Counted from the first letter of the stretch, positions 39,266 through 55,689 are shown. The stretch is 64,000 nucleotides of DNA from an uncultured delta proteobacterium (GCA_963843145.1 CAWJJC010000020.1:352001-416000); one strand, 5' to 3'. Numbers and translations are program-made. Notes: generated by a model from the sequence alone, not told the origin.

Positions 39266-41046
39266 GATTCTGCTCCACCTTCTCTGGATAGGCCGGTCGA
39301 TCCCCTCTGATTCCCGGCCGCCAGGTTTTTCAACTCATAGAGGAGATCGGTCACCATAACCCCCTGAGGGCAGTGCTCCTGGCATTGATAACAGGTCAGG
39401 CAGTCCCAGATCATCCGGTTGCCTCGAGCCGGATCGATCAACCCCAGACCCAGGCTGGTCATAATCTGGTGGGGGAGGAGCCCCAGGACCTCCTCCGGAT
39501 TCTCAAAGGCGGCTACCACCGGACAGATATTGGTACAGTTTTGACAGACAAAACAGTTGGCGAAATTGCGGGCGTCCGGCAGGAACACCGGAAGGACCGG
39601 GACCTCAGGGCTCAGGGCCAAGGGATGCTCCGCCGTTTTCCCCTCCTCAAAAGGCAAGGCCACGGCTTGCCTGGCCAGTTGGACGGGTGCCTCATATTCT
39701 TTCCGGGGGTGGATGGCCTGGTTCAGTCCGCGAGCGAATGAATAGGGAGAAAGGATCAGTCGTTCCGGGATACCCCTTTGCACCAGGTCCTCTTTCAAAT
39801 CGACCCAGAGTTCTTTCAGGTTGATTCCCGAGGGGCAGACCACCGTACACCGGTCGCAACTGGTGCAACAATAGACCCCTTCCAAGAGGGACCGGAGCTG
39901 CCGGGGTTCCAGGGACTTTCCGCGAACCAGGGCCTTGAGCGCGTGCAGCTTCTCCGAAGGCAATATATTTTCATTGCCCCAGAGTTCGTAGGCCGCCCCC
40001 ACCGAACAGCGGATACTGCAGGTCCCGCAATGGGTGCAGGCGTCCAGTTCGATCATCTGCCGGGTGGCGACGTTGGCCGGGTGGGACCGCTCCCGGTCCA
40101 TGACCGCATTCATCAACAGGGATAGGGGGGTATAAAGGATATGACCCATCTTGCTGAAGGGCAGGTAGGCCAGGCCGATAAGGCACAACAGGACGTGCAC
40201 CACCCAAAGAATCGCGGGCAGTCCCCTCCGGTCCAGGAAGAGGGCCAGTGGGCTCAGCAGTTTGGCCGTGGGATAACCTAAAAGGGCCCAGGAGGCTGCG
40301 GAATGACATTCCAGGCAAGTCGTTTCGTGGATTTCCTTTCCCTTGGCCAGTACCCGGGGGTCTCCGGGACCCTTGACGTTAGGGGAAACCAGCCCGTATT
40401 GCCGCACCCATAAGGTTTCCAGGGCCTGCAGCTCCTGGTTCCCTTCCCATTGGGAATCGATGGCTCCATAGTCCTCAGCCATCTGCAGAAATTCGGAATA
40501 AGAGGTGATCTTGACCCCTTCCAAAAGGATCCCCGAGCCCAGGATCAGAAGCAGGATGGCCAGGGCATAATAGTCCATACCATGGGTTTTCAGGCGGGGG
40601 ACTTTTTGGATAAAGCGCCGCCAGACCGCCAGGCCCATTCCGGCCAGGACCAGCAAACCGGAGAGGTCGCGCAGAAAAAAGAAAGGGTTGACCGTCGAAT
40701 GATATGAAGGGAAAAGAGGGGCCGTGACCAGGCTCCCCAGGGCATGCATCAGGAGCAGGACCATAAACCCCCAGTAAATGGAGAGATGCATGGCCCAGCG
40801 CAGGCGATCTTCCTTAAAGGTCCTCCTTTGAAGAAACACATCCAGGACCAGGGCCTTGACCAGAGCGCCCGCTTGAAGGCTGAAGATTGTTGTCAAGACC
40901 CCCTGAAAAGCGGCTTTGACCCTTTGCGGGGTGGTAAATCCCCTTGAAGTCTGAACCAGGCCCCGGGAGAACCAGAAGTAGATTTTGTAAATCAGTCCCA
41001 GCCCAAAAATGATCAGCGCTAAGGGCAGGAAAAACTTAAAGACCAT
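39262..41046 (-). CDS. membrane-bound HdrC-like protein: NarI/DsrM-like membrane domain + CxxCH + two 4Fe-4S dicluster domains
   Basis: About 5 TM helices with RWAMH and PFSKMGH; CLECH; four CxxCxxCxxxC motifs including WDCLTCYQCQEHCPQGV. Confidence 0.8.
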   Translation of the reverse strand: MVFKFFLPLALIIFGLGLIYKIYFWFSRGLVQTSRGFTTPQRVKAAFQGVLTTIFSLQAGALVKALVLDVFLQRRTFKEDRLRWAMHLSIYWGFMVLLLMHALGSLVTAPLFPSYHSTVNPFFFLRDLSGLLVLAGMGLAVWRRFIQKVPRLKTHGMDYYALAILLLILGSGILLEGVKITSYSEFLQMAEDYGAIDSQWEGNQELQALETLWVRQYGLVSPNVKGPGDPRVLAKGKEIHETTCLECHSAASWALLGYPTAKLLSPLALFLDRRGLPAILWVVHVLLCLIGLAYLPFSKMGHILYTPLSLLMNAVMDRERSHPANVATRQMIELDACTHCGTCSIRCSVGAAYELWGNENILPSEKLHALKALVRGKSLEPRQLRSLLEGVYCCTSCDRCTVVCPSGINLKELWVDLKEDLVQRGIPERLILSPYSFARGLNQAIHPRKEYEAPVQLARQAVALPFEEGKTAEHPLALSPEVPVLPVFLPDARNFANCFVCQNCTNICPVVAAFENPEEVLGLLPHQIMTSLGLGLIDPARGNRMIWDCLTCYQCQEHCPQGVMVTDLLYELKNLAAGNQRGSTGLSREGGAES

Positions 41047-41364
41047 AGAAAAAACAAACCCTTCTTTAACCTGGGAGGAAAGCGATCAAACGAAGTACGT
41101 TTCACCCAAAGCCGGGCTGGACCACACCCCTTCCCCTGAGTTGGTAATAGCCCGATCAGGGTGGACATCGCGCTAAAGGATACAGGCAGATAGTTACATG
41201 TTAAGGGAACATTAAAAAAAGGTCAACCGGATAACGATCCTTAACAGGTAACGCGAGACGGTCGGCAAACCCGGGTAGCCGCCAATTTTTCGGATAATAT
41301 CTTTGACCTTTTGAAATCACTTCATCATAATTGAATCTCTGCCGTTTAAAAAAAGGAGGAAACG

Positions 41365-42188
41365 ATGGACCTGATCACCATTGACCGCGAGAAATGCAAT
41401 CAGGACGGTATTTGTATCAGCGAGTGTCCAGCCCGCATCATTCGGATGGATGAAAAGGAGGGCTATCCCCTTCCCACTTCTGATTTTGAGGAGTATTGCA
41501 TCAGATGCGGACACTGTGTGGCCGTTTGCCCCGTGGGGGCGCTGCGCCTTGACTGGCTGGATCCGGAGAATTGCCGTGAACTGGAGAAGGACCTGGCCTT
41601 GACCCCCGAACAGGCCGAGCAGTTTCTCCAGGCCCGGCGCTCGATCCGGAGCTTTAAGGAAAAGACGGTCCCTCGGGAGACCCTGGAAAAACTATTGGAG
41701 GTCGCCTGTTCCGCTCCTTCAGCCAAGAACCAGCAGCCCTGGCACTGGATCGTTGTCCAGGAGCCCCAGGAAGTCCGGCGAATGGCCGGCCTGGTCGTGA
41801 AGGCCATGCGGGCGGTCCTGGAATCAAATCCGGAAGCCGGGAAAACGCGGGGCTACACCGGGTGGTCGCCGCCTGGGACACGGGATTGGATCGGGTTTGC
41901 CGGGAGGCGCCCCATCTCATCATCGGTCATGCCGACCGAAACTGGCTTTTCGGTCCCGAGGACACCGCTCTGGCGTTGAGCCTGCTCGACCTGTACGCCA
42001 CGAGCCTCGGGTTAGGGGTCTGCTGGGGCGGCTACTTGTACAAAACGGTAAATGCCTACCCCCCCCTGTTTGAGGCTCTGGGCCTGCCCAAGGATCATCT
42101 TGCCTTTGGGGCCGTGATGGTCGGCTATCCGAAATTCAAGTACCCGCGTATCCCGGTCCGCAATCCGCCTCGGGTGACCTGGAAATAA
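41365..42188 (+). CDS. ferredoxin-nitroreductase fusion (frameshift near 41860)
   Basis: CNQDGICISECP, CIRCGHCVAVCP, RRSIRSF and APSAKNQQPW; second ORF supplies SLGLGVCW...VGYP. Confidence 0.88.
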
Positions 42189-42262
42189 ATTTTTGCCTGA
42201 TTCCCATTCCTGGAGTTGTTAGAATTCTTGGAAGTAAAGAAATAAAGCCTGGGAGAAGAAGC

Positions 42263-42544
42263 CTGCAACTTACCCGAATCAGCCCCAAACATCAAATCAC
42301 CATTCCCAAAGAGGTTTTCGAAAAGCTTCAATTGGAGGTGGGAGATTTTTTGGAGGTGGAAGCAACGGAGCCCGGGGTGCTTCTCGTCCCTAAAAAACTT
42401 ATTTCCAAGGATCAGGCCTGGTTCTGGTCCAAGGATTGGCAACAGAAAGAAATGGAGGCGGATCAGGCGATCGAGCGAGGAGATTTGTCAAAACCATTTC
42501 AAAAGGCAGAGGAATTACTAACGCATTTAAAAAAACGCCTATGA
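42263..42544 (+). CDS. AbrB/MazE-type antitoxin
   Basis: Frame upstream of the track start reads TRISPKHQITIPKEVFEKLQLEVGD, then DQAWFWSKDWQ; start uncertain (CTG 42263). Confidence 0.75.
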   Translation: MQLTRISPKHQITIPKEVFEKLQLEVGDFLEVEATEPGVLLVPKKLISKDQAWFWSKDWQQKEMEADQAIERGDLSKPFQKAEELLTHLKKRL

Positions 42545-42774
42545 ACATCAAAACCACCAGGCCTATTGACAAAGATTACCAAGATCTGCCCAATTCCGTC
42601 AAAGAACAAGCCGACAAACAGCTCGCTCTTTTTTTAAACAACTCACATCATCCATCTTTAAAAATCAAAAAGGTAAAGGGGCATCCCAGAATTTGGGAAG
42701 GAGGGATTACCAAAAACTACCGTTTCACCCTAAATATCTCGAGTAGATCCGATGGTCGCCCTTTCCTTCTCTGA
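42541..42774 (+). pseudogene. RelE/ParE-like toxin, C-terminally truncated
   Basis: ATG overlaps the antitoxin stop; HPSLKIKKVKG..IWEG.IT..YRFT then similarity is lost at about 42740. Confidence 0.65.
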
Positions 42775-42846
42775 GAAAAGAACATCCCCCCAATTCCAAA
42801 AGTCTGATCAACTCTTTGGTTTTAATGAGGGAATATTTTTAGGCAT
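42737..42846 (-). pseudogene. HicA-like toxin fragment
   Basis: MPKNIPSLKP / ELIRLLELGGCSFLREGKGDHRIY with one frameshift; ATG overlaps the hicB stop. Confidence 0.65.
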
Positions 42847-43105
42847 AAACCGCTCTTAGTTCAAAGGATTCGGACCTGGGCTCCCTTGCTTCCACTGTTA
42901 AAAATTCGTGAAGTTCTTTAATGGAAAGAGGGGCGTTATAGACATCTTCGTCTGTCCGAGCGACTTCTTCAAAGGATTCGATCGCCTCTTTTAGTTTGGA
43001 GACGGCCTTTTTCTTGCTTTTGCCTTGCCCTACCAACCCGTTTTCAAGGCATAAGGCTACCCAATAGTCCCCACTTTTTCTTAAAACAGTTGTATAAAAT
43101 TCCAT
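42839..43105 (-). CDS. HicB-family antitoxin
   Basis: YTTVLRKSGDYWVALCLE.GLVGQGKSKKKAVSKLKEAI. Confidence 0.8.
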   Translation of the reverse strand: MEFYTTVLRKSGDYWVALCLENGLVGQGKSKKKAVSKLKEAIESFEEVARTDEDVYNAPLSIKELHEFLTVEAREPRSESFELRAVYA

Positions 43106-43134
43106 AATTTTCCCCTTTTCCCTTACCTTTTTCC

Positions 43135-43680
43135 TTACCTTGGTACTGCCAAAAGCATGGCATCTAAGAGTCTTTTTTCATCACTCCCCTCAGGATACAG
43201 GGCCGAAAGGGAGTTGGCAAGGCGTAAAAAATCAGGCCCCCGGTCCTGTTTGGCCTTCAAAAGTGCGCAGGGCATTGGTTTGCGCGCTGGATTGTAACCA
43301 CATGGCGGCATGGACCCGGTCAAGGGTGGTGGCGCCTTTATCTTTAATCACCCCTTCAGAAACATCCAAATTGGTTTGCTTCGCTCCCCTTCTGCCTCGT
43401 CCTTTTATTTGGGGTGGGAGGGCTTCTTCCTTCTGCTGAAAAAGAGAAAGTTGGATGTTTCCTTGTGGAGATTGTTCAAACCGTTCGGCAAAGGCATGGG
43501 CGGTTTCTTCCCCAAAAAGCTGTTTGGCCCTTTCCATGACGGATAGAAGCCGATCGACCCCTTTCTCAGTTTCGATAATCCGTCCTTTCCATTCGGGCAA
43601 TCGAATGCCAAGGGGCTGGGCAAACCGGCGTACCACATCAAAATTGACCGCCTTAAGAGGTTCAAGCCTATACTGCATTC
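43135..43680 (-). pseudogene. C-terminal remnant of a DUF1156-type DNA methyltransferase
   Basis: FDVVRRFAQPLGI, TTLDRVHAAM.LQ and LANSLSALYP.GS.EKRLLDAMLLAVPR recognised as the tail of that family; rest of the gene absent. Confidence 0.6.
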
Positions 43681-43784
43681 GCTCATGGTCGGTTGGATCC
43701 GACCGGCCGACGGGAATGAGGACCATGGGAATCTGAGAAACATGGGGGACAAACCCCCAAATCATTCGTCATCCTTCTATCCCC

Positions 43785-44335
43785 GGCGTTACGATCCACT
43801 CGCAACAGAATTCGGTAATGGGTCCATGAGAGATTCGGATGCAAATTTCCCGGCTGCCAGGGTTTTCCAAACAGTATTGGAAGAGTTGAAGCTGGTATTG
43901 GGGAATCTCCCTGTGGATCGTTCAAAACCTTTTTCCCGGGAGCCTTTGCTTCGAATTTCGAACTCGTTGCGTTCGAATTGAAATAGTCAGAAAAGTTCGA
44001 AGAAATCGAACGCAGTGCGTTCGATTTTTGTCCACCCAGTAAAGCATCTTACTCCAGGTAAAACTTGCGGCAATATTCGAGGTTTCTTACTGACCAACCT
44101 TTTCCAAATTCTTTTCCTAACCGTTCAGCCAAATCTATTAGAAGATTTTCCCCGTAACCCGCTCTTCGTTTGCCCTGCTGCTCTTCCTCAACGATCTCCC
44201 GGCCGATTAGCCAGTTGGACACCACCTGGGTGGTGTTGACCGTGCGGGACACATTCGTCCGGGCCGACTCCAGAATCTGTCGGATGCGTTCATATAGCGG
44301 TGCCTTTTTGTTTTCAGGCAGCTTTGTCGGCGATT
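43785..44335 (-). pseudogene. YhcG/DUF1016 family nuclease, N-terminal fragment
   Basis: NWLIGREIVEEEQQGKRRAGYG, GWSVRNLEYCRKFY, then after an in-frame stop LSWTHYRILLRV; PD-(D/E)xK domain missing. Confidence 0.8.
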
Positions 44336-44338
44336 CTT

Positions 44339-44727
44339 TCACGGCTCTATCTCCTCGCCCAAAAAGGGGCAACTGCCCCGGTTTGGGCGGGCCTTGGGCA
44401 GATTTTCCACCCGGAGGCTGTAATCGTCATGTCCCCATTCGCAGCGTTTTAAGACGGCATTGGGAATCATTTTGATCGTCAGATTGGGGAAACGGTCGGA
44501 CTTCCCCCGAAAGGCCGAACAAAAAACCAGCAGGGATCGGCTTTGGCCCACTTCATCGTTTAAGCCCTGAAGCTGGTCATGGCTCAGGTTCTGGGTGGTT
44601 ACGTAAATATAATCTCCCTTTCCGTGGAATGGCCGTGCTGCCAATAGATAGCTTCGCTCCGGGCATAGACAAACCCCTCCAGTTTACAGAGGGCCTCGGC
44701 CAACATGGCGGCATTGTATTGCTTAGT
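44339..44727 (-). pseudogene. C-terminal remnant of a type III restriction-modification methyltransferase (Mod)
   Basis: YNAAMLAEALCKLEGF..YWQHGHSTE / YIYVTTQ...LLVFCSAF...CEWGHDDYSL; ends at the IS left end. Confidence 0.7.
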
Positions 44728-46072
44728 TGTTAAGTGCCATGACATCGTAGACACAATAGTGTGCCAGCACATCGTAGACAAAGTTCTCTGACAATCGAAT
44801 AGCCACTCGGTCATAATCATGAACACCGAAACCAAAATGGAGGTGTTCATGAAGGATGAAGTGGAGTTAACAACGGACCTGGGCGGTACGACGTTTTCTC
44901 TATGGTGAGAAGCCCGAATCAATCTGTGTTTCGCTTCGGTAGATCGAAAGCATGGCTGTATAAGTGGGTCAAGCGGTATCTTGAAGACGATCCTTTCTGG
45001 GTCGAAAACCGGTCTCGACGTCCCCTCAACAATCCGACACACACCGCCAGAAATTGAGGAGATCGTCAAGCTGGTGCGTTTCAATCTTTACAACCAAGAT
45101 TTATTTTGCGGTGCGCAGGCCATCCTGTGGGAAATGGAAGATCTTGGTGTTAAGCCGCTTCCCTCGCTCCGCACCATAAACCGCATTCTCAATGCAGGGG
45201 CTGACTCATCGACGTACAGGGCAATATGAAGCCAAAGGAACACCATATCCCAAGCTGCCGTCGCTGTTGCCGAACCAGACCCATCAGGCTGATCTGGTCG
45301 GCCCGTGTTATCTGAAAGGGCCCGTTCGCTTCTACAGCCTCAATATCGTCGATACGGCCACGGTCCGTTGCGGACTACACCCGTCGCTCTCCAAGGCCGG
45401 CCAGCAGATCATAGACGGTATCTGGGCGATCTGGAAGCGTCTGGGAATACCGGACAACCTCCAGATCGACAACGCAATGTCCTTCTTTGGCAGTCCGACC
45501 CATCCCCGTGGCATGGGGCCGCTTATCCGGCTGTGCCTGCACAACGGAGTCGAGCCATGGTTTATCCCCATGGCCGAACCATGGCGAAACGGGATCATCG
45601 AAAAGTTCAACGACCGTTACCAACAAAGTTTCCTCCAAGGTCACCATGGCAAATCCGGAGATGCTCTCCGGATCGCTGGCCTTTGAGCAGCGGCACAACA
45701 GCAGCTACCGATATAGCAAACTCGGCGGGAAAACGCCCTTGAAAGCGTTGGAGGCGGCTAATCGCGTTTGAGGTTTCCAAACAGGAACAACCTCCTCGGC
45801 ACCGGCTTAAAAAGCCAGAAAACGGACGATACCATGTGGTCCGCCTGATCCGCAGAGATCTGAAGTTAAACATCTTTGGTGAACTCTTCCCGTTCCCCCC
45901 GAGCTGGAGCATGAATACGTGGTGGCTACGATCGATGTCAAAGAACAGAAATTGAAAGCTCTACCTGGACAAAACAGAATCGAGGTAATGTTCGATTACT
46001 AATTACGCTAATAACTGAGTGTCCACGATGTCGTGGCACGAAAATCCGTCCACGATGTCGTGGCACTCAACA
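44728..46072 (+). mobile_element. IS481-family insertion sequence with frameshifted DDE transposase (about 44829-46010)
   Basis: TGT...ACA ends; left TGTTAAGTGCCATGACATCGTAGAC vs reverse complement of right end TGTTGAGTGCCACGACATCGTGGAC; rve-type motifs HQADL, LQIDN and NGIIEKFN; flanks CTTAGT / CGTAGT. Confidence 0.88.
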
Positions 46073-47720
46073 CGTAGTAATTTATGCACCGCCGGAACAA
46101 CGTCACCCTTTCACGTTTAGTATAATCAAATGGCAAATTGATCGAATGAAACGCCCGGCCTAATTTGGGGACATATATTGCAAAAACTTCTTTAAAGACA
46201 CGTTCTACTCTTACCCGAACTTGCTTTTCTTTCTGCATGGGGACCTCTAACAAAATTGCATCATGCATAGGTATCAAGAAGCCGACATCATTCATCGATT
46301 CGCTCAGAGTGAGAAGTGATATCTTGAAAATATAAGACGCTGTTCCCTGTATTATCTGATTTGGCACCCATCGCTTTTCTTTTTCTGTTATTTCTCCCTT
46401 TTCTCTTAAGTACCTTCTATTCCCCGAGATTGTAGCGGTATAGCCCTTCTCTTTAGCCTCATTGCAAACCTGGTCTTTCCAAGCAGCAAGCGATTTAAAT
46501 TCGCTAAAGAATTTAAGACCTTGGGCCTTGATTTCGTCCTGGCCGGTGAGATTGACAATAAGTTTCCCAAGTCTTTCCTTTGAAATACCATATAAGAAGG
46601 CCAAAAAAATAGTTTTCGCTATTTTGCGTTTATTCTTCGTTCCAAACAGAAGGATACTCAATTCACTATACACATCACCCTTATTGTACAAATTTATTAG
46701 TTTCGGGTCCTTGGAAAATGATGCAATTATCCCAGGCTCAAACTGGTCAAAATCGGCATATATATAAATCTTACCTTCTCTAGGAGTGAATATGGCGCGA
46801 CAGGTTTTTTTTAGATACTGAATGCCCGGCTTCGTGACCAAGATTCTGCCTGTCACCGTTCCTAAAACATCAAACTCGGGATAAATGTACTTATAGGCGC
46901 TAACGGAGTATTTTAATAGTGTCGAGTAATCCATGGACGCATTTTTTGCCACAAGTAAACATTTCAAAAAATCATCGTATTCAGAGTAGATTTCAGTGAA
47001 TTCCCAAAAATCATAATCCATCTCGGTACTAATATCAGTAAGAGAAGTGTAATCCCTAACGTCTTCCCATTTCATATTGGAAATTATCTTCTGACTTACA
47101 AAATTGTAGTCGAGTTCAAGTCTCTTGATTGATGAAAAACGTGTCGTTTTCAGATCCAAAAGTTTGTCAATGAGTCTATCCTGGGAAAGAACCAGTCCGT
47201 CAAGTTGCGTACGCAAGAATAGATTGTAAATCGGGACCTCCACCTGAGTAAATCTTCCTTTTTCATCTTTTAAATTCAAGTCTTTTTCAATTGCTGCCCA
47301 GGCACTATTAAACCCATTAAGCAGATCAGCAATATTTTTAAGAAAATTCTCATCCGTATCCAATGAAACGACCTCTAACTGGTTAATTTTGTGTAACCAC
47401 ATTAGCGTTTCCCTAGAAACAAATTCCCGAATGATCCCCTTAAGAATCCACGGTTCATTGCCCACCTTATAATCGGATTTAGGACGCCCAGTCAGAAGTT
47501 TTTTTGCCGTCACTATATCAACGACCTTAGGTAACCGGCTTGGTTTTAAGTCTCTTAATTGATCTATACATTCTTCAAAATTATATGCTACTATTTCTGA
47601 GTACCTTAGGATACTTCTGACATATCTGCTATAGAAGACTCGATTTCCTACCTTCATTAGTACATATGGTTTTTCTTCAAGCGGATGTCTCAAGCAAATC
47701 ATGAACAAGGATTCAGACAT
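46008..47720 (-). CDS. compact family-A DNA polymerase (PolA-like), partner of the upstream RT; true stop probably 46126
   Basis: GTVTGRI...PGIQYL, motif A ADFDQFE, motif B RKIAKTIFLAFLYG, GNRRYL, NQIIQGTA and motif C MHDAILLE. Confidence 0.88.
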   Translation of the reverse strand: MSESLFMICLRHPLEEKPYVLMKVGNRVFYSRYVRSILRYSEIVAYNFEECIDQLRDLKPSRLPKVVDIVTAKKLLTGRPKSDYKVGNEPWILKGIIREFVSRETLMWLHKINQLEVVSLDTDENFLKNIADLLNGFNSAWAAIEKDLNLKDEKGRFTQVEVPIYNLFLRTQLDGLVLSQDRLIDKLLDLKTTRFSSIKRLELDYNFVSQKIISNMKWEDVRDYTSLTDISTEMDYDFWEFTEIYSEYDDFLKCLLVAKNASMDYSTLLKYSVSAYKYIYPEFDVLGTVTGRILVTKPGIQYLKKTCRAIFTPREGKIYIYADFDQFEPGIIASFSKDPKLINLYNKGDVYSELSILLFGTKNKRKIAKTIFLAFLYGISKERLGKLIVNLTGQDEIKAQGLKFFSEFKSLAAWKDQVCNEAKEKGYTATISGNRRYLREKGEITEKEKRWVPNQIIQGTASYIFKISLLTLSESMNDVGFLIPMHDAILLEVPMQKEKQVRVRVERVFKEVFAIYVPKLGRAFHSINLPFDYTKRERVTLFRRCINYYVLSATTSWTDFRATTSWTLSY

Positions 47721-49341
47721 AAAATGACACCTCTCTAATCAGATCATAATATCTGATTTCTCTCGGAGGTTCGATGTATTTTGGGGTTGCAAACTTGCTG
47801 AGAGTCCTAAACATACCCACTGACTCTGCTTTTATATGCGCTTGAACTTTCTCCTTAACCGTTTGATATTCTACTTCCTGGATAGCAATTAGAGCATGCC
47901 TCTGTAAGAAGAAATTGTCAAAATTCGGAAATTTTTCAACAATCCAATCTCTGGAAGTTTTGTCACCGCAGCAACCTAAATACAAGATTGCGCCGGCCTT
48001 ATCAGCATGACTGGAAGTCGTATTAACAACATTCTTGGCGTGCTGAATTAATTCTGAATCACAAAATCGATAATAAGCAAATACCTTCCACAACAAATAG
48101 TTTTGCCAACCATAAATTGCTTTCTTAGTGTCCAATTGAAAATTCCGCAGTAGCTTCAACTCACTGTTCTCCAAGTTGACAGCGACCAGATAAGAATAGA
48201 ATTGGTCGGAAATATGGGGCCACTCTGGTATACAATCAAGGATAGCCCCTGTAATATCTTTGAAGAAATTCGCTGGCTTTGCTATGTCTTTACATAATGC
48301 CAATCGTCCAATTCTATTGACAAAGAAGCGAAATTCTCTATCTGACACTCTCTCTTCTCTAATTGCACTAAGTAGCCCGTCACGAACTTCCTTGAAGGCC
48401 ATCGCAACCAACGGTTTCTTCTTACTATTTAGCAATGAGTCGATTCTTTCGAGGTCAAATTGATTGGAGGTGGTTGCGGGATGACCCGGTTGGCCAGGTT
48501 CAATAATTTTTGTCTTAGAACCATTAACATTTAGACCAATCTTCCTCAGTTCATTTATAAGCTGTTTCAATATATTTCTGGCATCGTATTTGTCTTCACA
48601 AATCACTCTGATATCGTCAACGTATCTATAATAATCGAATTTTCCCCTTAACATAAACAGGTCTAGGGGGCGAAGATATATGCTAGCCAAAAAGGATGAA
48701 ATATCTCTATTTTGAGGGAGTCCATTCACTCCATTGTACGACCAAACCTCTACACAGCGGCATATCGATTCTATGCAGAACCTTAATTTGGCTTTTCCTT
48801 TAGCGGACCCGTCCACCTCACTTAGGCACTGAAATAATGTCGCTTTCAAATCGGCAATTCGGATACTTTCGAAATAATTCTGTATATCGGTTTCAAGGAC
48901 CGTCTTGTTAGCTGAATCTACCCGTACAAATTCTCGGAATTTGGTCCATTGTTCTATTGGGGGTAGGAACAAACTTTTGGGCTTGCCTTTTCGGTAGGAG
49001 ATCTCATCCAAGCGATGGCTCAAGACACGCCGAGGAATTACCGCGTCAAAGTGTTCGATGAGGATCTCACCAAAGGCATGATAAGCAACTCTGTCGTAGA
49101 AACAGGTTTCGAGGGAATATCTTAGCGTGGCCCCTTTTTTGGGAACATTTGCCACTAACTTTTTGATAGGCTGATATACACCATTGTTCGTTTCTATGTT
49201 GCTATGAAAATACCAAACAATATCACTTGTGTTTAACCGATCCTCGAATAGCAAGGGGTCAAGGAACCAATCATCTTTCAAGTCCTGTCTTACGAAACGA
49301 ACTGTTCTATCCAGATCTATAACGCAGTATCCAAGATCCAA
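47713..49341 (-). CDS. reverse transcriptase, UG/Abi (DRT)-like, with C-terminal alpha-helical domain; probable true start ATG 49361
   Basis: DDWFLDP, DRVAY, TDIQNYFESI, GLPQNRDISSFLASIYL, YRYVDDI and GLNVNGSKT; no maturase/HNH tail and no retron VTG motif. Confidence 0.92.
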   Translation of the reverse strand: MDLGYCVIDLDRTVRFVRQDLKDDWFLDPLLFEDRLNTSDIVWYFHSNIETNNGVYQPIKKLVANVPKKGATLRYSLETCFYDRVAYHAFGEILIEHFDAVIPRRVLSHRLDEISYRKGKPKSLFLPPIEQWTKFREFVRVDSANKTVLETDIQNYFESIRIADLKATLFQCLSEVDGSAKGKAKLRFCIESICRCVEVWSYNGVNGLPQNRDISSFLASIYLRPLDLFMLRGKFDYYRYVDDIRVICEDKYDARNILKQLINELRKIGLNVNGSKTKIIEPGQPGHPATTSNQFDLERIDSLLNSKKKPLVAMAFKEVRDGLLSAIREERVSDREFRFFVNRIGRLALCKDIAKPANFFKDITGAILDCIPEWPHISDQFYSYLVAVNLENSELKLLRNFQLDTKKAIYGWQNYLLWKVFAYYRFCDSELIQHAKNVVNTTSSHADKAGAILYLGCCGDKTSRDWIVEKFPNFDNFFLQRHALIAIQEVEYQTVKEKVQAHIKAESVGMFRTLSKFATPKYIEPPREIRYYDLIREVSFYV

Positions 49342-49579
49342 AAAGGCTTTTTTTTTCCCATATGTTTACCAAAGGTATTCCGTGGGACTCTTCTTTATTT
49401 CAATGGAGCTTCTCTGTTTATAGTTATCCTGGCTCTTTCATGGGATTAAAAGTTCTTTTTTTGCCAAGGTGGAATATTAATCGTCACATTCCTTCTTCTT
49501 ATACACTCCGAATAGACCAAAATCGGAATGCTTCATGGATTGACCTTTCGATTAAGATTGTTGGCCAAGGAAGACAGTA

Positions 49580-50393
49580 TTATATCTCGCTTAATCTCTT
49601 TGCCTCGGAAAAGAAGATGGCCGATCCAACCGGTTTATCCTGCCAGACCTTCTCTCGGTGAGCCGCTTTATAAACCTGGCGTTCATCGGGGAAGGTCTTG
49701 ACGATCTTCTCGATAATCAACAGTTCTTTCTGGGCAAGGGGTTCGGCCTCGGAATCATCCGCTTTTTTAATCTCTTCCACCAAGTCCCGGTAGTTGTTGA
49801 GCTGTGGCCCCAAAGGCAGAGCGGCATAACCGGCCCCGGTCATGCTGGTCCCCAGATCGCGGAAGGCCAGCATATCCGCATACCAGAGGTATTTGGCTGC
49901 ATAAAGCATTCGGTCTGTTTTTCTGAGAAGCGGCCTTCCTAATTTGTTTTCAAAAGTGGTTAAAACTAATTTGGTCCGCGGGATAGAAAAAGGTTCGGTT
50001 TCCCGAAAAATCGTCTCTCAAACGGTGTCCTATCAGGTGAAGGCGAAGGGCGTGGTCCAGGGACTTGCTCTGGATCAGCCCGGTTTCCCATCGTTTAATA
50101 CTGGCCACTCCGATCTTTAGGATGTCTGCCAAGGCCTGTTGGGTCAACCCTCTTTTTTTGCGTAACGTTTTAATCTCGTCGCCGGTAAGAAGTCCGGTCC
50201 GCTTTCGGAAGGCATCGGCCAAATCCTGTTGAATGGGTCCGGCGGTTTTAGCCGTTCCGGCCTCCATTCCGCATTCCGGGCAGACATAGGCCTCAACCTG
50301 GGAGGGAATCTCCATTCCCCGAAAGCTGACGGTCTTGGTAATTTTCAGGAGTTTCATCCGGTCATGCCCTCGGGGGCAATTTAAAGCCTTCAT
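49580..50393 (-). CDS. MqsA-like zinc-finger + XRE HTH + Panacea (DUF4065/SocA) antitoxin, frameshift near 49990
   Basis: CPRGH...CPECG, GLTQQALADIL..GVASIKRWETG; second ORF KYLWYAD...MTGAGYAALPLGP. Confidence 0.75.
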
Positions 50394-50402
50394 GATGATT
50401 TC

Positions 50403-51524
50403 CTAGTTCTTTACTGCTTTGAATTTGGAAAATCGAATCCGATTCTTGAGTTTATTGCCTTGTGAAAAGGAAATAATATTTTCATGTTGAAGCCGTCCTA
50501 CAATAATTCCGGGGGCAATGTCTATCTGTTCTGCAAATCGTAAAATCGTATCCGGGCTGAAGTCGTTGCCGGTTATGAAATTTTTATAGGCTTCCTTGGG
50601 AATTAACATTTCCTGGGAAAAAAGATCGGCCTCTTTTTCCTTGGAAATCCTTTCAGGTTCTCGGTGACCATCCCCTGAGGCCTCGATATAGACTTCTTTT
50701 TTCCCATGAAGCAGAATATGACCGGCTTCATGAAAAAAGGTGAACCAGAGATGATCGTCACTTTTTCCGCGCAAACTGAGCTGGATGAGGGCCTTCGAAG
50801 GTTTCAGCCAGCGAGTGGCTCCATAAAGGCGTGTTCCCGGGAGTTCCGGGATGAAGACCACGGCCACGCCGCTTCCCGCGCAAAGTTCCTTCATGGCCGG
50901 TTCAAACACCTCGGGACCCTTTTGAGTCAAGGTCCGTATTTTTTGTAAAGCCTTCAGGAAAGAACGCGGTTGAAAAGATTGGCAGTCAACCTTTTGCCCT
51001 TCAATCTCTCCCCGGCGCAACCAGGCGGCCACGGCGGCCGGATTACTTTGAAAGGCCTTTGAATTGCGGTAGGCCGCTTGAGGGTTTTCCCATATTGCCT
51101 TCCATTCGTTAACGCCGGCTACTCCAAAAAAAGTCAAAAGGTCCCGTACTCTCTTAATCGGGTTATCCTCCTTTGACAACCAGCCCATTTTTACCATGGC
51201 CGCCAGAGGAAACCCCTTTAGCCAATTAGCCTGTTTTTCCAGATAATGGTCTTCTCTAAGCCGGGCCTGCCTTTCTTGATAGTTGCGCTCCAGGTTGTTC
51301 CAGAAAGAAGCCGGGACACCCAGCACCCTTTCCAATTGGAGGGCCGTTTCCGAGGTTATAGCTGCTTTCCCCATGATGATCTCATTAACGGTCTTTTTGG
51401 GGCGGCCTGTCCTCTCCGCCAACTCCGCCTGGCTCATGCCGATCGTTTCCAGCGTTTCTTTCAGAGTTTCACCGGGAGGAACGGCATAGTCCGGTTGAAA
51501 TGATTGGTCGGCATTCCTATTCAT
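50403..51524 (-). CDS. higA: HigA-type antitoxin with ImmA/IrrE metallopeptidase domain
   Basis: PPGETLKETL..GMSQAELAERTG, ASFWNNLE and FFHEAGH (HExxH). Confidence 0.88.
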   Translation of the reverse strand: MNRNADQSFQPDYAVPPGETLKETLETIGMSQAELAERTGRPKKTVNEIIMGKAAITSETALQLERVLGVPASFWNNLERNYQERQARLREDHYLEKQANWLKGFPLAAMVKMGWLSKEDNPIKRVRDLLTFFGVAGVNEWKAIWENPQAAYRNSKAFQSNPAAVAAWLRRGEIEGQKVDCQSFQPRSFLKALQKIRTLTQKGPEVFEPAMKELCAGSGVAVVFIPELPGTRLYGATRWLKPSKALIQLSLRGKSDDHLWFTFFHEAGHILLHGKKEVYIEASGDGHREPERISKEKEADLFSQEMLIPKEAYKNFITGNDFSPDTILRFAEQIDIAPGIIVGRLQHENIISFSQGNKLKNRIRFSKFKAVKN

Positions 51525-51855
51525 GCGTATCCTCAATTCCTAATATCTTGACTTTGGTGATTTTTTTCCAGTTTAGGCCACCGTCCTCTTTCCGAGGACA
51601 ATCTTCATAATCTGGAAGAATGATCAGCCGGTATGGCTGCTTTACATCGAGAGAAATCTGGCCCTTACGGTTTCCGGTTAACTCATGGGCTCGGGCTTGC
51701 GGGAGGGTGCGTAGTATTTCAAGGTTATCGGCGGCCTGAATTTCAGACAGACGCCGGGTAATTTTCCTGGCCTGTTCTTGGCCAAAGACCTTAATCAAAG
51801 CTTTTTCACTCGAAAAGGTTTTTTGATCTTGTTTCCTTCTAAAAGAAATTAACAT
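51517..51855 (-). CDS. higB: HigB/RelE-family toxin
   Basis: HELTGNRKGQISLDVKQPYRLI and ILGIEDTH; overlaps the higA start. Confidence 0.85.
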   Translation of the reverse strand: MLISFRRKQDQKTFSSEKALIKVFGQEQARKITRRLSEIQAADNLEILRTLPQARAHELTGNRKGQISLDVKQPYRLIILPDYEDCPRKEDGGLNWKKITKVKILGIEDTHE

Positions 51856-51882
51856 CGCGCCCGTCTAATGTCAATAAAAAAA

Positions 51883-51897
51883 TAACCCTTAGGGTTA
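51883..51897. promoter_or_regulatory. palindromic operator upstream of higB
   Basis: TAACCCT-T-AGGGTTA about 30 bp before the higB start. Confidence 0.55.
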
Positions 51898-52239
51898 ATA
51901 ATAAATTTTAAATCGGGCTCCGTTAAGATTGAATCGCTATCGCTGCCAAAGCCCCAGCATTCGAATCGTCCGAGGCATCGCGCCCTGAGTTGGATGATAC
52001 TCAAGTATCCTTTTCGCCCAATAAATGATACTTATCAATCAAAAAGATCATTAAACCTTCTGGCTTGACGGACCCGAGTTTCGCGTCCACCTCACCAGTC
52101 CGTCGTTGAAAATAAAAAAGCCCTGCTCCTTGATTACGAAGCAGAACCTTTGAGTTTCATTCATCCTCCCCAAGTTAAGGTTAGGCGGAAAAATAATCGG
52201 CCTGGATTTCGCCGGCACTGGTGAAAAAAGCTGCCCTTT

Positions 52240-53118
52240 TCAACCCCATTTCTCGCGGAAACGGCTTAAGCGGTAGGAGAGCAGGACCCTGTAAACTTGC
52301 TTGGGCAAAACCCCGGTTCGTTCAGCAATCAGCGGGTGAAGAGCAGAAGATGGGGGACCGGAGGCCGACAGGTATTTCCGGTACTCATTCAGGACGGCGG
52401 TTTCCTGTTCCGAAGTTACATGGGAGACGTTTCGCACTTCTTCTCCCCGTCATGAAGAAGGTCCAGATAGCGGGAGACCACCCAGGGGTTCAAGCCGGTC
52501 TCTTGAGACGATCTGGTCTTGGATTTCCGAGAAGGAATTTTTTCCTTCCAGACGAGAAAAATAGGCCTTTTCGATGGTGAAACGCTCTTCCCGGGTCAAA
52601 TCCTCTACTTGGGCCTGCTGTTGATTCCACTGCCTCAGGGCCAGGACAACGCTCCGGGATGGAATTCCCATATCGGCGGCGATGGTCTTTCGCCTTCCGT
52701 GCGCTGGCCTCTCCAGACCCTGAACATAGATTTGATATCGGTCCACGATTTCCTGAATCTGCGCCGGGGTCAGCTCGATTTCTTCCCTCTTCCGATCGGG
52801 GGTTGGAGGTTCTCCCTGTTTGCCGGTTTTTTCTTTGGGCGCCGGCTGTACCTTCTCCTCGCTTCCCTGGCTTTCGATCTCCCTTGAAACCTCGGACCTT
52901 GGAATATCAATCGGCCCGGAGGCTGGACTTTTTACGATGGATTGTTTTGTTTTCCCCGCTGCTTTTGGCGAGGGCTCTTTTTGGGGGACCGTTTCCGATT
53001 GGGGCCTTGGTTGGCCCTTGCCGGCACATCGTTGGCATATTTTTGCCTTCTTATCCGGGGTTAAAAAACTCCGCCCACACTCCTCGCAATCCTTTCTGAA
53101 GGCCATTCCTCCGGACAT
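52240..53118 (-). CDS. hypothetical protein with N-terminal zinc ribbon and repeated helical domains (frameshift near 52500)
   Basis: CEECG...CQRC; continues in ORF 52240-52437. Confidence 0.55.
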
Positions 53119-53155
53119 AAATTCTCCCCTCCTGCTTTTCTTTTCTTGCTGGATT

Positions 53156-53533
53156 TTAGTGCTTCAACCGGCAGGCTAGCGAACACTTTTTCGGCCAGAG
53201 GGCCCAATCTTCGGGAGGTTTACAGATCTTCTCTTCTATCCGGCGTTCCAGGTCCTCCCGGACCTCCGGATCCAACCGGAGATCGTCCAGATGGCCGCTG
53301 ACCTCTTTCCAGAAAAGACCGAATTGAAAAGACTGGAGGTCGAATTCCCGGACGGAGAGGAAGCGTTCATCCAGGGTCCCGAGCAGGAAACAATCTTCTT
53401 CCGCGGCGGTCTTGGCCCCCGGACGGCAACCGATCAGGACAGCCTCCAGCCGAACCTGCATCCTTCCGGCGCCTTCGGACATCGATCTGTTCCGCCATTC
53501 GAACCGCATAGCCGCCTCACTAAAAAACCGCAA
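53156..53533 (-). CDS. hypothetical protein
   Basis: ORF fills the gap in a co-oriented operon; no recognised motif. Confidence 0.45.
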   Translation of the reverse strand: MRFFSEAAMRFEWRNRSMSEGAGRMQVRLEAVLIGCRPGAKTAAEEDCFLLGTLDERFLSVREFDLQSFQFGLFWKEVSGHLDDLRLDPEVREDLERRIEEKICKPPEDWALWPKKCSLACRLKH

Positions 53534-53550
53534 ACTCAGGGCGCGGTTTT

Positions 53551-55689
53551 TTAGATTACAAAGGTCTTCGAATCCACCGGGAAGGTGAACCGATCGTAAA
53601 TCCGCTGGATCCCCTTGGCTCGGCGGACCGGGCTGATCCCCAACTGGCGGATCCTCTCCTCCACCGTCTGGCAGGTTTTGAGCAGTTGGGCCAGCATGCC
53701 CGGGCCGACGGTTTCGAACTGGATCCGTTCCGGCTCCAGACCCAGCTCGGACAGGACCTCCCGAAGATACTCCACCCGTTCCAGGGCCTTTTTGTTTCCT
53801 TCAAAGGATTTGCAGCCCTCGATCGGACAGGCCAGGACCACTACTCCGTCGGCCCCTTCCCGAAAAGCGTGCAGCACGTGATCCGGATCGATCTTCCCGG
53901 CGCAGGGGACCTTGATGAACTCAAACCCGATGGGCAGCGGTTCCCGGAACAACAGGGCCTGCTGCAGGGTCTTATCCGCTGAATTCTGGCAACAGAAGGC
54001 CACCACCTGCGGCACGATCGTGTCGAATTTCCGGTCCGTAAAATTCCCGGAGATCTCCCGGAGTACGACGGAATCATGGAAATCCTTGATCTGGATGGCA
54101 TCCATGGGACATTCGGCCGCGCAGACCCCGCAGACCTGGCAGGCCAAGGGATGGGCCTGAGGCCGGCGAAGGACGAAATGCATGGCCTGATGGGGACAGG
54201 ATCGGACGCACGTCAGACAAATGGTGCACTTCTTGCGGTCGACTCGAACCCGCGACTCCACCTCTTGAATCCCCCGGCCGATCAATGCCGCGGCGGACAG
54301 GACCGCTTCCTCCACTTCGGCCCGTATTTCCTCCGGGTCGGCGAAAGGCCGACGGCTGCCGCCCACTACATAAATTCCCGGGCGGGGGGCCCGGACCGGC
54401 AGGGCGTAAACCTGATCCGGAGCCATAAATCCCTTTTGATCCAGCGGCGTCTCCAGGATAGGGGAGAGTTCCTTCAGCCAGGGGTGGGGAAGCAGGTCTT
54501 CCTCCACCACGATGACCTGCGGTTTTAAGATCAGCGTGCGGTCGATGATCTCATCGAAAAACTCCACCTGGAGATCGGCCTCCGTCGCTTTCACGACCGG
54601 AAGATGACCGGTGAAGCGGAAGAAAATGACCCCTTCCTCACGGGCCCGGGTTGACTCCCGCTCCAAACCCTCAGCGGCCACCTTCAGGTTTCCCGACAGG
54701 AAATAGACCTGGGTATTTTCCAGCCCCTGGACTTTTCGGGCGTTACTCAGGGCCCTGGCCAGCACCGGAGGACCGGACTCGGACGCCAGACCCGACAGGA
54801 AAACGATCTCGGTCTGCTCTCCCTGGGGAATCAATTTTTCCCGGTACTCCGGTGAACGTAACAGGGTTTCCAGTTGGTCCAAGGAAAGGACCCGGCGGGA
54901 GGGTTTCAGGCCGAAGGCTTCAAAATTGGGCTTCACTTCCGGCGCCAGGGCGACCAGGACAGCCCCCACCGCTTCTTCCTGAATCCGGTCTTCCCCATCC
55001 AGGTAGCGAACCGTAAAACGCCCGACCTGACCTTCCAGGCTGAGGAGTTTGACCTCGCTCACCAGGCGAAACCCCGGCAGGGCGGTCAATTCGGAGAGGG
55101 ATCCGTCCTCCCCCTCCACCCCGGAGACCTGATCATAATACCCGTCCCGGTCGGATTCCTTGCCGTCCACCAGGACCAGCGCCTCATATCCGAGCCGGAC
55201 GGTTTCCCTGGCGGCCAGCCGTCCCATCGGCCCGCTTCCTAAAATCAACAGGCGGGGAATGGTTTCCACCTGTTCCCGGATCGGGGTCTCGGCGGATGGC
55301 AACCGCAGGAGGGCCTGTTTCAGTAAAAGGATGGATCGTTCCCGGACCAGTTCCGGTTCCGCTGCGGTCCCCCTGAAAACCGGTCGCACATTCACCATGA
55401 ACACTTGATCGGGATGAAGGCCCAGGCGGGTCGCCTCCTTTTGGAAAAAGCCGGATCGGTTCGACCCCCGGTCGGAGACAAAGACCAGCCGGGACAGATC
55501 ATGGGTTCGGATCTCCTGCTCCAGCCGTCCGGCGCTGGCCTCCCAGTGGTCTTCGAACAGGTCCTCCACGACCTTCACCCCGGGGAAGGAACCGGCCAGC
55601 ATTTTTAAATCCTCGCTGCCCGGTGTATCCGGCATTCTCTTTTCTTTATGGTAAAGAAAGACGCCGATCTTCGGTTCTACATCTAGCAT
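53551..55689 (-). CDS. QmoB-like protein (degenerate HdrA domain + 4Fe-4S + MvhD/FlpD domain)
   Basis: KIGVFL, CTICLTCVRSCP, CQVCGVCAAECP, VVAFCC and VPCAGKID...GADGV; likely ATG 55689. Confidence 0.82.
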   Translation of the reverse strand: MLDVEPKIGVFLYHKEKRMPDTPGSEDLKMLAGSFPGVKVVEDLFEDHWEASAGRLEQEIRTHDLSRLVFVSDRGSNRSGFFQKEATRLGLHPDQVFMVNVRPVFRGTAAEPELVRERSILLLKQALLRLPSAETPIREQVETIPRLLILGSGPMGRLAARETVRLGYEALVLVDGKESDRDGYYDQVSGVEGEDGSLSELTALPGFRLVSEVKLLSLEGQVGRFTVRYLDGEDRIQEEAVGAVLVALAPEVKPNFEAFGLKPSRRVLSLDQLETLLRSPEYREKLIPQGEQTEIVFLSGLASESGPPVLARALSNARKVQGLENTQVYFLSGNLKVAAEGLERESTRAREEGVIFFRFTGHLPVVKATEADLQVEFFDEIIDRTLILKPQVIVVEEDLLPHPWLKELSPILETPLDQKGFMAPDQVYALPVRAPRPGIYVVGGSRRPFADPEEIRAEVEEAVLSAAALIGRGIQEVESRVRVDRKKCTICLTCVRSCPHQAMHFVLRRPQAHPLACQVCGVCAAECPMDAIQIKDFHDSVVLREISGNFTDRKFDTIVPQVVAFCCQNSADKTLQQALLFREPLPIGFEFIKVPCAGKIDPDHVLHAFREGADGVVVLACPIEGCKSFEGNKKALERVEYLREVLSELGLEPERIQFETVGPGMLAQLLKTCQTVEERIRQLGISPVRRAKGIQRIYDRFTFPVDSKTFVI

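Follow-up and report, generated by a model that had tools for sequence, protein, structure and literature searches.

The pairing of a reverse transcriptase (RT) with a DNA polymerase of family A (PolA) was described in 2008 by Kojima and Kanehisa (cited in PMC2602772 and PMC9226505); the family concerned, UG9, is given as their "group D" by Simon and Zimmerly 2008 (PMC2602772). According to Mestre et al. 2022 (PMC9226505), 60 of 79 UG9 members belong to a small variant and 19 carry a protease and an MBL hydrolase; the family is reported there to be enriched in defence islands, and a defence function is predicted there without experimental validation. Models for both partners of the pair, RT_UG9_small and RTasPolA, are held by PADLOC. 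The present analysis concerns a cassette of this type in a 64,000-nt stretch of DNA from an uncultured delta proteobacterium (GCA_963843145.1, CAWJJC010000020.1:352001-416000), referred to below as the window. The cassette is a UG9-small system, made up of a class 1 UG/Abi RT and the family-A DNA polymerase dedicated to it, and constitutes a further example of a catalogued kind; the pairing itself is not new. An initial annotation of the window had read the cassette as a UG/Abi-type, UG9-like RT coupled to a dedicated PolA, and had described such a pairing as one noted computationally. The former reading is upheld by the PADLOC profiles, the fold and the gene linkage described below, and the latter statement by a literature that reaches back to 2008, by the catalogue of Mestre et al. 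and by PADLOC. The only other relevant mention of UG9 found is a 2025 preprint on the protease-MBL pair, and the combination of "defense-associated reverse transcriptase" with "family A DNA polymerase" gave no literature match.

Several families of defence-associated reverse transcriptases (DRTs) have recently been shown to make unusual DNA, namely random single-stranded DNA, homopolymers and protein-templated repeats; UG9 stands beside them as a catalogued family without a reported experiment, and one that recruits a Pol I-type enzyme. Among the described enzymes, AbiK, Abi-P2, DRT4 (UG15) and DRT6 share with the UG9 RT the succession of palm, fingers and a helical domain that replaces the thumb, but they act alone, whereas UG9 brings a PolA partner in 76 of 80 related loci. 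All four are reported to be protein-primed, with template-independent synthesis described for AbiK, Abi-P2 and DRT4, and the priming tyrosines of AbiK (Tyr44), Abi-P2 (Tyr61) and DRT4 (Tyr125) are N-terminal (PMC9508834, PMC12783706), unlike the C-terminal candidate residue of UG9. DRT3, a dual-RT system (UG3 + UG8), resembles UG9 in that two polymerases are encoded side by side; its two RTs are reported to make complementary strands, with double-stranded DNA as the joint product, and its DRT3b subunit (UG8, class 1, 667 aa) to prime DNA synthesis on Tyr666 in the C-terminal tail (PMC13174585). DRT3b and the UG9 RT have in common the class 1 type, an alpha-repeat domain, a C-terminal tail and a penultimate tyrosine. 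The partner in DRT3 is, however, a second RT templated by a non-coding RNA (ncRNA) and not a Pol I relative, and the UG9 RT reaches 30.8 bits on the NCBIfam Drt3b model, against a cut-off of 350. In DRT7 (UG10), which like UG9 combines a second DNA polymerase with a class 1 UG/Abi RT, the RT product is reported to be handed as primer and template to a PrimPol, giving duplex-like DNA (bioRxiv 2026.04.18.719102). There the PrimPol domain is fused to the RT, whereas the UG9 partner is a separate family-A enzyme, and the RT core of the window's enzyme matches RT_UG10_large at no better than E 8.6e-17. De novo priming is not to be expected from a family-A enzyme.

At the locus, the listing of open reading frames (ORFs) gives two minus-strand ORFs, an RT ORF at 47713..49341 and a PolA ORF at 46008..47720, the latter 570 aa long as read. 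The features of the cassette, all on the minus strand and given with the basis for each, are the following:
46008..46125, minus strand, spurious 3' extension of the PolA ORF as read (without homologue support)
46126..47720, minus strand, UG9-associated family-A DNA polymerase (RTasPolA), homology-supported extent (profiles, Bst Pol I alignment, fold)
46168..46185, minus strand, frame break near the PolA 3' end (three-frame translation against 12 homologues; model confidence)
47713..47720, minus strand, 8-nt RT/PolA overlap ATGTCTGA (ORF coordinates; junction comparison)
47713..49341, minus strand, UG9-small class 1 UG/Abi reverse transcriptase, 542 aa from TTG 49341 (PADLOC, Pfam, model, fold)
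49342..49361, minus strand, possible 5' extension of the RT gene (three-frame translation; homologue N-termini)
49342..49579, minus strand, leader of 238 nt between the upstream Panacea-domain ORF and the RT (fold test, Rfam, leader comparison)

The initial annotation had described two minus-strand genes overlapping by 8 nt and more AT-rich than their flanks, and both points are borne out. The minus strand of 47713-47720 reads ATGTCTGA, which is common to both ORFs: the PolA ATG is composed of the last two bases of the RT Tyr541 codon and the first base of the final RT codon, and the TGA is the RT stop. This arrangement suggests that translation of the two genes may be coupled. The GC content across 46000-49499 is 0.38-0.42 (a block of about 39%), compared with 0.53-0.55 at 45000-45999 and 0.48-0.49 at 49500-50999 in the immediate flanks and with 0.57-0.62 in the core genes beyond 40500 and 53500.

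The assignment of the RT rests on profile scores and not on a tree. The protein matches RT_UG9_small with 511.4 bits (E 8.3e-154) over profile positions 7-540 of 541, the next-best PADLOC profiles being UG9_large (310 bits), UG21 (173 bits) and UG32 (156 bits), while PolA matches RTasPolA with 369.5 bits (E 6.5e-111); chance is excluded for both family matches because of these E-values. Both proteins thus match the profiles of the small variant nearly end to end, the gene order fits, and no protease or MBL partner is present, as in that variant. No categorical difference from it is seen, and the PolA 3' frame break is what sets this copy apart. The large variant was rejected, the RT of 542-549 aa lacking a trypsin-like protease and the upstream gene being a Panacea fragment rather than an MBL-fold hydrolase. 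For the RT, the closest protein found shares 63% identity, and for PolA 55%.

The RT translation contains the motif stretches LETDIQNYFESI, NGLPQNRD, YYRYVDDIRVI and IGLNVNGSKTKI, and the elements on which the initial annotation had based its claim of a complete RT core (TDIQNYF, GLPQ, YVDD and GLNVNGSKT) are all present. RVT_1 is the sole Pfam domain, in agreement with the earlier statement that a maturase or HNH tail is lacking; an N-terminal protease domain is likewise missing from the Pfam result. On the NCBIfam models, the RT reaches 61 bits on the group II model TIGR04416 (cut-off 300) and 32 bits on retron_St85_RT (cut-off 235), and it stays far below the cut-offs of the named DRT models. 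A group II intron RT or maturase was accordingly discarded on the basis of the Pfam result, the TIGR04416 score and the lack of a group II Rfam match in 40000-54000, and a retron on the basis of the RT score, the lack of an Rfam match and an unstructured leader. By score, the RT belongs to neither group, as had been annotated. A diversity-generating retroelement was also rejected: the longest direct repeats in 45700-50000 measure 14-22 nt and the sole exact pair is the end of an insertion sequence (IS), which accords with the repeats reported absent at the outset.

In structural terms, the AF2 model of the RT (mean predicted local distance difference test, pLDDT, 90.5) shows palm and fingers around the YVDD core, followed by an all-helical domain with helices at 295-515. 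This alpha-repeat C-terminal domain (~290-537) takes the place of the thumb, and the helical C-terminus of about 250 aa expected from the sequence corresponds to residues ~290-542 of the model. The C-terminus itself is a short disordered acidic tail that ends ...EVSFYV. The best full-length folds in the PDB are UG15/DRT4, AbiK, DRT6, Abi-P2 and AbiA; the structure of the G2L4 RT is also among the matches, with the Abi/DRT class 1 enzymes being closer.

For the second protein, the Pfam family DNA_pol_A is matched at E 5e-41 (141 bits, cut-off 34), and the motifs A, B and C noted initially are confirmed by alignment to Bst Pol I, as YADFDQFEPG, RKIAKTIFLAFLYG and PMHDA, respectively. Residues D323, E328, R365, K369, H486 and D487 are invariant in 68/68 sequences; they represent the motif A Asp, the steric-gate Glu, the O-helix Arg and Lys, and the motif C His-Asp. 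The O-helix Tyr of Pol I is present as well, and Leu occupies the position of Klenow Phe762 in 65/68 sequences. The model (pLDDT 82.7) matches the Pol theta polymerase domain, Bst and Klentaq over its whole length with TM values of ~0.7, the Pol theta match being no better than those to Bst or Klentaq; whole-length fold and motifs A/B/C are likewise shared with Klenow. PolA differs from Pol I in having no 5' nuclease domain and in the reduction of the exonuclease-like domain to about 120 residues. This N-terminal part (~1-120) is a small sheet-and-helix domain, vestigial and exonuclease-like, at the place of the Pol I 3'-5' exonuclease, and is followed by thumb, palm and fingers. No Pfam exonuclease domain was detected in PolA and residues 1-120 hold no conserved DxE, only D68 being widely kept. 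From these alignments it is concluded that PolA is a catalytically constrained DNA polymerase without proofreading. The housekeeping Pol I is encoded by a separate gene elsewhere in the genome, in a 905-aa frame.

The behavior of the pair across genomes was followed in the best 80 of 290 relatives obtained from a scan of species-representative genomes; junctions and flanks were counted in those 69 pairs, among them the one in the window, in which each gene is a single intact frame. Linkage to PolA among homologues, on which the initial annotation had made its reading depend, is the rule: PolA lies directly downstream of the RT on the same strand in 76/80 loci. Of the four unlinked loci, three (L030, L045 and L085) stop at a contig end and in the fourth (L074) the RT is truncated. 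An 8-nt overlap of the form TATGnnTRA is found in 46 of the 69 pairs, across many phyla. Apart from the pair, no flanking family recurs in more than 3/69 loci, and no third conserved gene is seen in this set; the upstream gene shared by L078, L080 and L082 accompanies RT frames of ~820 aa, which fits the large variant. Pairwise identities of RT and PolA correlate with r 0.955 over 68 pairs, a value reached in 0/999 permutations and inflated by related sequences; it is read only as a sign of co-inheritance. Collectively, these findings show that UG9 is a self-contained, co-inherited, strict two-gene module. As a side observation, the final RT residue almost always comes from a codon that begins with G (E, D, A, V or G).

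The UG9 RT turned up in none of the 40 relatives searched, of which 3 share the genus, 17 the family and 20 the phylum, and the genome itself holds a strong UG9-profile match at one locus only, two others being weak (E 1.5e-11 and 3.4e-5). Because the GC content of 0.38-0.42 contrasts with ~0.6 in core genes and no searched relative carries the UG9 RT, composition and distribution show that the cassette was acquired horizontally, into a small low-GC island of toxin-antitoxin (TA) and restriction-modification (R-M) debris. Among 74 matches on viral contigs, one is a full-length UG9 relative (L089, 6.7 kb) with PolA directly downstream; the length of this contig does not allow its viral label to be judged.

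A direct contact between the two proteins is predicted by structural modeling of RT residues 62-542 with PolA residues 1-516, each with its own alignment. The complex model gives an interface score (ipSAE) of 0.72 (0.71, 0.73 and 0.72 in three runs), compared with 0.00 for the highest-scoring of 3 controls; at least 95% of contacts are common to the runs, and partner pLDDT values are 79-80. That mark is reached by 58/80 solved complexes and by 2/110 mismatched pairs, a calibration that is rough, as own alignments were used. In the model, the confident interface joins RT 104-142, 293-318 and 352-359 to PolA 12-15, 114-119, 184-211 and 266-274. The acidic C-terminal tail of the RT, a candidate docking peptide for PolA, does not belong to this confident interface. 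We know of no solved RT-PolA complex that memory of the predictor could draw on to explain the score, and the model supports the view that RT and PolA probably bind each other.

The RT tail deserves separate attention, since its penultimate residue is a conserved tyrosine, present in 99 of the 107 homologues of at least 500 aa (among 120 listed) and in 57/69 loci. It lies in a segment modeled with pLDDT below 50. Its codon contributes two letters, A and T, to the PolA start codon, and the possibility that the residue is a pure by-product of the overlapping start was examined and rejected as the sole cause, because the tyrosine persists with other junctions and because NAT-G would also allow His, Asn and Asp. 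It is kept in 11 loci without an 8-nt junction call; in two of these (L063 and L064) an ATG may give the usual junction, while in five others (L068-L071 and L077) the junction measures 4 nt and the Tyr codon is free of the PolA start. Since DRT3b primes on a tyrosine at the same place in its C-terminal tail, the penultimate tyrosine of UG9 is, by analogy, a strong candidate for the priming residue. A mapping of DRT4 Tyr125 or AbiK Tyr44 onto UG9 was also attempted and abandoned, as the profile alignments cover the palm only (positions 179-285) and allow no such mapping.

Two features of the reading frames concern the state of this particular copy. Two probable indels had been suspected by the initial annotation, and both turn out to be real frame features, one at the PolA 3' end and the other at the RT start. 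PolA homologues are 528-535 aa long and cover only 91% of the 570-aa ORF. The protein as read leaves all 12 aligned homologues after ...RVFKEVFA, whereas the frame one base upstream reads ...ICPQIRPGVSFDQFAI, fits the family C-terminal consensus and stops at the TGA at 46128-46126, which is also the end coordinate (46126) chosen by the initial annotation. The switch occurs between ~46168 and 46185 and equals one missing base within a short A run. Read as it stands, the frame puts other residues in place of about 15 conserved C-terminal ones, residues 522-570 have pLDDT below 50, and the spurious extension runs into the terminal repeats of the neighboring IS (19-nt repeats, 46021-46066). As regards the RT, the ATG at 49361 initially taken as its start is out of frame with the ORF across a run of nine A (A9, 49348-49356), and the in-frame start is the TTG at 49341; one extra base in the run would yield a 549-aa RT with the N-terminus MGKKKAF. 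In homologues, 2-7 residues precede the aligned DLG/DFG position, and the nearest homologue is 549 aa long. The RT is not necessarily broken, because the product of the TTG start already covers profile positions 7-540 of 541. The source genome is a 32-contig assembly with 6.9% contamination. One public read set, compared through 5% of its words, gave a 252-nt contig at 48747-48998 and two short pieces near 45910-45951, away from both frame features. With a PolA 3' end that is read out of frame and an ambiguous RT start, this copy may be impaired unless the frame features are assembly errors.

In the mechanism that we infer for UG9, largely by analogy, the RT would start DNA synthesis on a tyrosine of its own, like its class 1 relatives AbiK, DRT4, DRT6 and DRT3b, and the priming site would most likely be the penultimate Tyr541 in the flexible C-terminal tail. 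The RT would then make single-stranded DNA without a nucleic-acid template. PolA, devoid of a proofreading domain, would be produced in concert with the RT and would dock onto it, a helix at the base of the PolA thumb lying against the RT fingers helix 128-142 and the first alpha-repeat helices. Once the free 3' end has folded back or paired, PolA would take it and copy the RT-made strand, and the result would be DNA in duplex or hairpin form that remains attached to the RT. Precedents for a second polymerase that works on the product of a class 1 RT are DRT7 and DRT3. If DRT3, DRT4 and DRT7 are a guide, accumulation of this DNA in the course of infection would halt the phage or the cell, the DNA serving as a toxic or sequestering signal. 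Taken jointly, the UG9-small identity and this RT-primed, PolA-copied mechanism are regarded as on balance probable. The initial annotation had sketched an RT making a protein-primed strand, untemplated or ncRNA-templated, with the dedicated polymerase making the second strand, extending the first or sensing phage replication; the protein-primed RT with its second polymerase would fit the class 1 fold, the penultimate tyrosine and the predicted contact, whereas the ncRNA-templated option has found no support.

A bolder version of this mechanism, put forward as a speculative and rather doubtful proposal, would see UG9 as a two-enzyme DNA-writing immune machine, in which the RT primes on the penultimate tyrosine and writes single-stranded DNA, untemplated or protein-templated, and the docked PolA with its HDA motif turns it into a protein-linked hairpin or duplex. 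If true, it would be the first immune use of a family-A polymerase and a split-gene counterpart of the RT-PrimPol handoff in DRT7. The two-gene module, the invariant but altered PolA active site, the conserved penultimate tyrosine and the predicted interface offer testable leads for the family, to which the window itself contributes only one more, slightly damaged example.

Several observations weigh against the proposed mechanism or narrow it. With respect to the RT, the best PDB matches of the core by sequence only are group II-like RT domains. Similarity of this kind, confined to the core, is usual for this lineage. RT residues 1-61 lie outside the complex model, and the interface is less conserved than the remainder of either protein, with mean column entropies of 2.56 against 2.09 for the RT and of 2.92 against 2.46 for PolA; interface conservation, considered as a support for the complex, was dropped on this ground. 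The penultimate tyrosine is not universal, because it is missing in 10/69 loci, mostly those with Bacteroidota-type and large-variant tails (...DFIS or ...LISL), and the tail is doubly constrained, by the PolA start and by a Shine-Dalgarno-like GAGGT in the EVS codons. With respect to PolA, motif C reads HDA, with Ala at the position of Klenow Glu883 in 67/68 sequences, where Pol I has HDE; since Ala replaces Glu883, the chemistry of the enzyme may differ from that of Pol I. The residue is counted among the catalytically active ones in a review (PMC10520511). The PolA C-terminus of this copy is, in addition, frame-broken. No effector domain is evident in either protein in Pfam, PADLOC and NCBIfam, and a literature search, which did not extend to supplements, found no experimental study of UG9 in connection with PolA, DRT or phage. 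Defence, protein priming, untemplated synthesis and second-strand synthesis all rest on analogy.

The frame features also raise the possibility that the cassette of the window is a decaying, non-functional relic of a family that may still be a defence system, an explanation which we hold to be tenable though rather unlikely. The conserved last residues of PolA (...ICPQIRPGVSFDQFAI) are not made and the tail that replaces them is modeled as disordered, and the homologue-like ATG of the RT is out of frame across the A9 run; against this, both frames are otherwise open over ~1.6 kb each in DNA of 39% GC, the catalytic residues are all intact, and the TTG start still provides an RT of nearly full profile length. 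Each break amounts to a single missing base, in the A9 run for the RT and in a short run of A for PolA, which could be an assembly error. The surroundings point toward decay, as an IS481-family element ends 60 nt past the true PolA stop and the adjoining defence genes are fragments (a Type III methyltransferase with positions 485-559 of 575 and a DUF1016/PDC-S02 protein with its N-terminus only). Furthermore, other copies of the family are visibly broken: L037, L052, L058, L067 and L084 have a single frame break each, in L083 (4970-9408) the RT is interrupted by ~2.6 kb, and L044, the closest relative in the genome collection (58% identity), shows three RT frames and a truncated PolA. These broken relatives reflect either decay or errors of long-read assembly.

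Three further explanations assign the pair another task than the RT-primed, PolA-copied synthesis preferred here. In the first of them, the RT would copy an adjacent ncRNA, as in class 2 DRTs and retrons, and PolA would make the second strand of the cDNA. The core of the RT is indeed closest in sequence to templated group II-like RT domains, and a 238-nt leader lies upstream; this leader, however, folds no better than shuffled sequences (z-score -0.57, with 57/200 shuffles folding at least as well), a search of 40000-54000 against Rfam found no family at E 1 except two weak, below-threshold matches to eukaryotic families, and promoter-like sites in the leader are no commoner than in shuffles. 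No nucleotide similarity was found among the leaders of related loci, a comparison that is weak as the nearest loci are only 42-58% identical at the protein level. A conserved leader or ncRNA was also sought in 14 blastn matches between upstream regions and discarded, these being coding N-terminal extensions or near-identical loci; the upstream similarity in some subclades is a coding N-terminal extension. The class 1 RTs studied to date are reported to be template-independent (PMC13174585), and an ncRNA template is considered improbable. A role of the pair in DNA repair or damage tolerance, with the RT and an exonuclease-free, Pol theta-like polymerase acting at breaks or gaps in DNA, as some group II-like RTs are reported to do, appears equally hard to sustain. 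The Pol theta polymerase domain is among the top fold matches of PolA, which has no proofreading motifs, but it fits no better than Bst or Klentaq; in the same way, G2L4 is among the fold matches of the RT, which is closest to Abi/DRT class 1 enzymes. A PrimPol-RT protein is reported to act in the oxidative DNA damage response as well as in defence (PMC12439943), whereas the sporadic distribution (0/40 relatives), the foreign composition, a context that differs at every locus and the reported enrichment of UG9 in defence islands (PMC9226505) argue against such a role. Finally, the two polymerases could serve to replicate a selfish mobile element, which would be a retroelement or a linear replicon with protein priming. 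Early surveys named such loci retroelements (PMC2602772), the two genes travel together across unrelated contexts and phyla, and the viral-labelled contig L089 carries it. No integrase, terminal repeats or other conserved gene accompany the pair, however, all repeats at the locus belong to the adjacent IS, only 1/74 viral-contig matches is a full-length UG9 relative, and the genome has a single strong UG9-profile locus beside two weak ones, which leaves this explanation very unlikely indeed.

Regarding the genomic context, the low-GC island (~41000-53500) sits between genes of the Fe-S/heterodisulfide-reductase type, with 925-aa and 594-aa proteins on one side and a 769-aa FlpD/MvhD-domain protein on the other. 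No tRNA gene is present in the window, and no integrase is found among the scanned ORFs except the IS transposase. The TA-type genes, R-M remnant and IS named by the initial annotation are all seen around the cassette, and the defence context within the island comprises a Type III methyltransferase remnant, a PDC-S02 fragment and a PD-Lambda-2_B-like gene. The two fragments are located as follows:
44339-44644 and 44049-44372, minus strand, defence-gene debris (Type III methyltransferase and DUF1016/PDC-S02, respectively; PADLOC)

The methyltransferase remnant consists of the C-terminal 75 residues only (PADLOC MTase_III). Between it and the PolA 3' end lies the IS481-family element (44734-46066), whose rve transposase lies in pieces in several frames. 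Each end of the element carries a tandem pair of a 19-nt palindromic repeat, the two copies 27 nt apart (44734-44779 and 46021-46066), and the pairs are inverted; the 5.3-Mb genome contains this repeat at no other place. Decay is under way in the island and may reach the cassette next.

On the other side of the cassette, the minus-strand segment 49580-50393 encodes an MqsA-like HTH antitoxin (147 aa) and then a short Panacea (SocA-like) ORF (109 aa), with no obvious toxin between these ORFs and the RT leader; a ParE-like ORF is also present in the island. At 50403-51855, again on the minus strand, a HigB-like toxin ORF (112 aa) overlaps the gene for a 377-aa protein with HTH and M78-peptidase domains, which matches PADLOC PD-Lambda-2_B at E 3e-35. 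It is possible that this HigB-like/HTH-M78 pair represents an intact toxin-antitoxin or defence pair beside the cassette.

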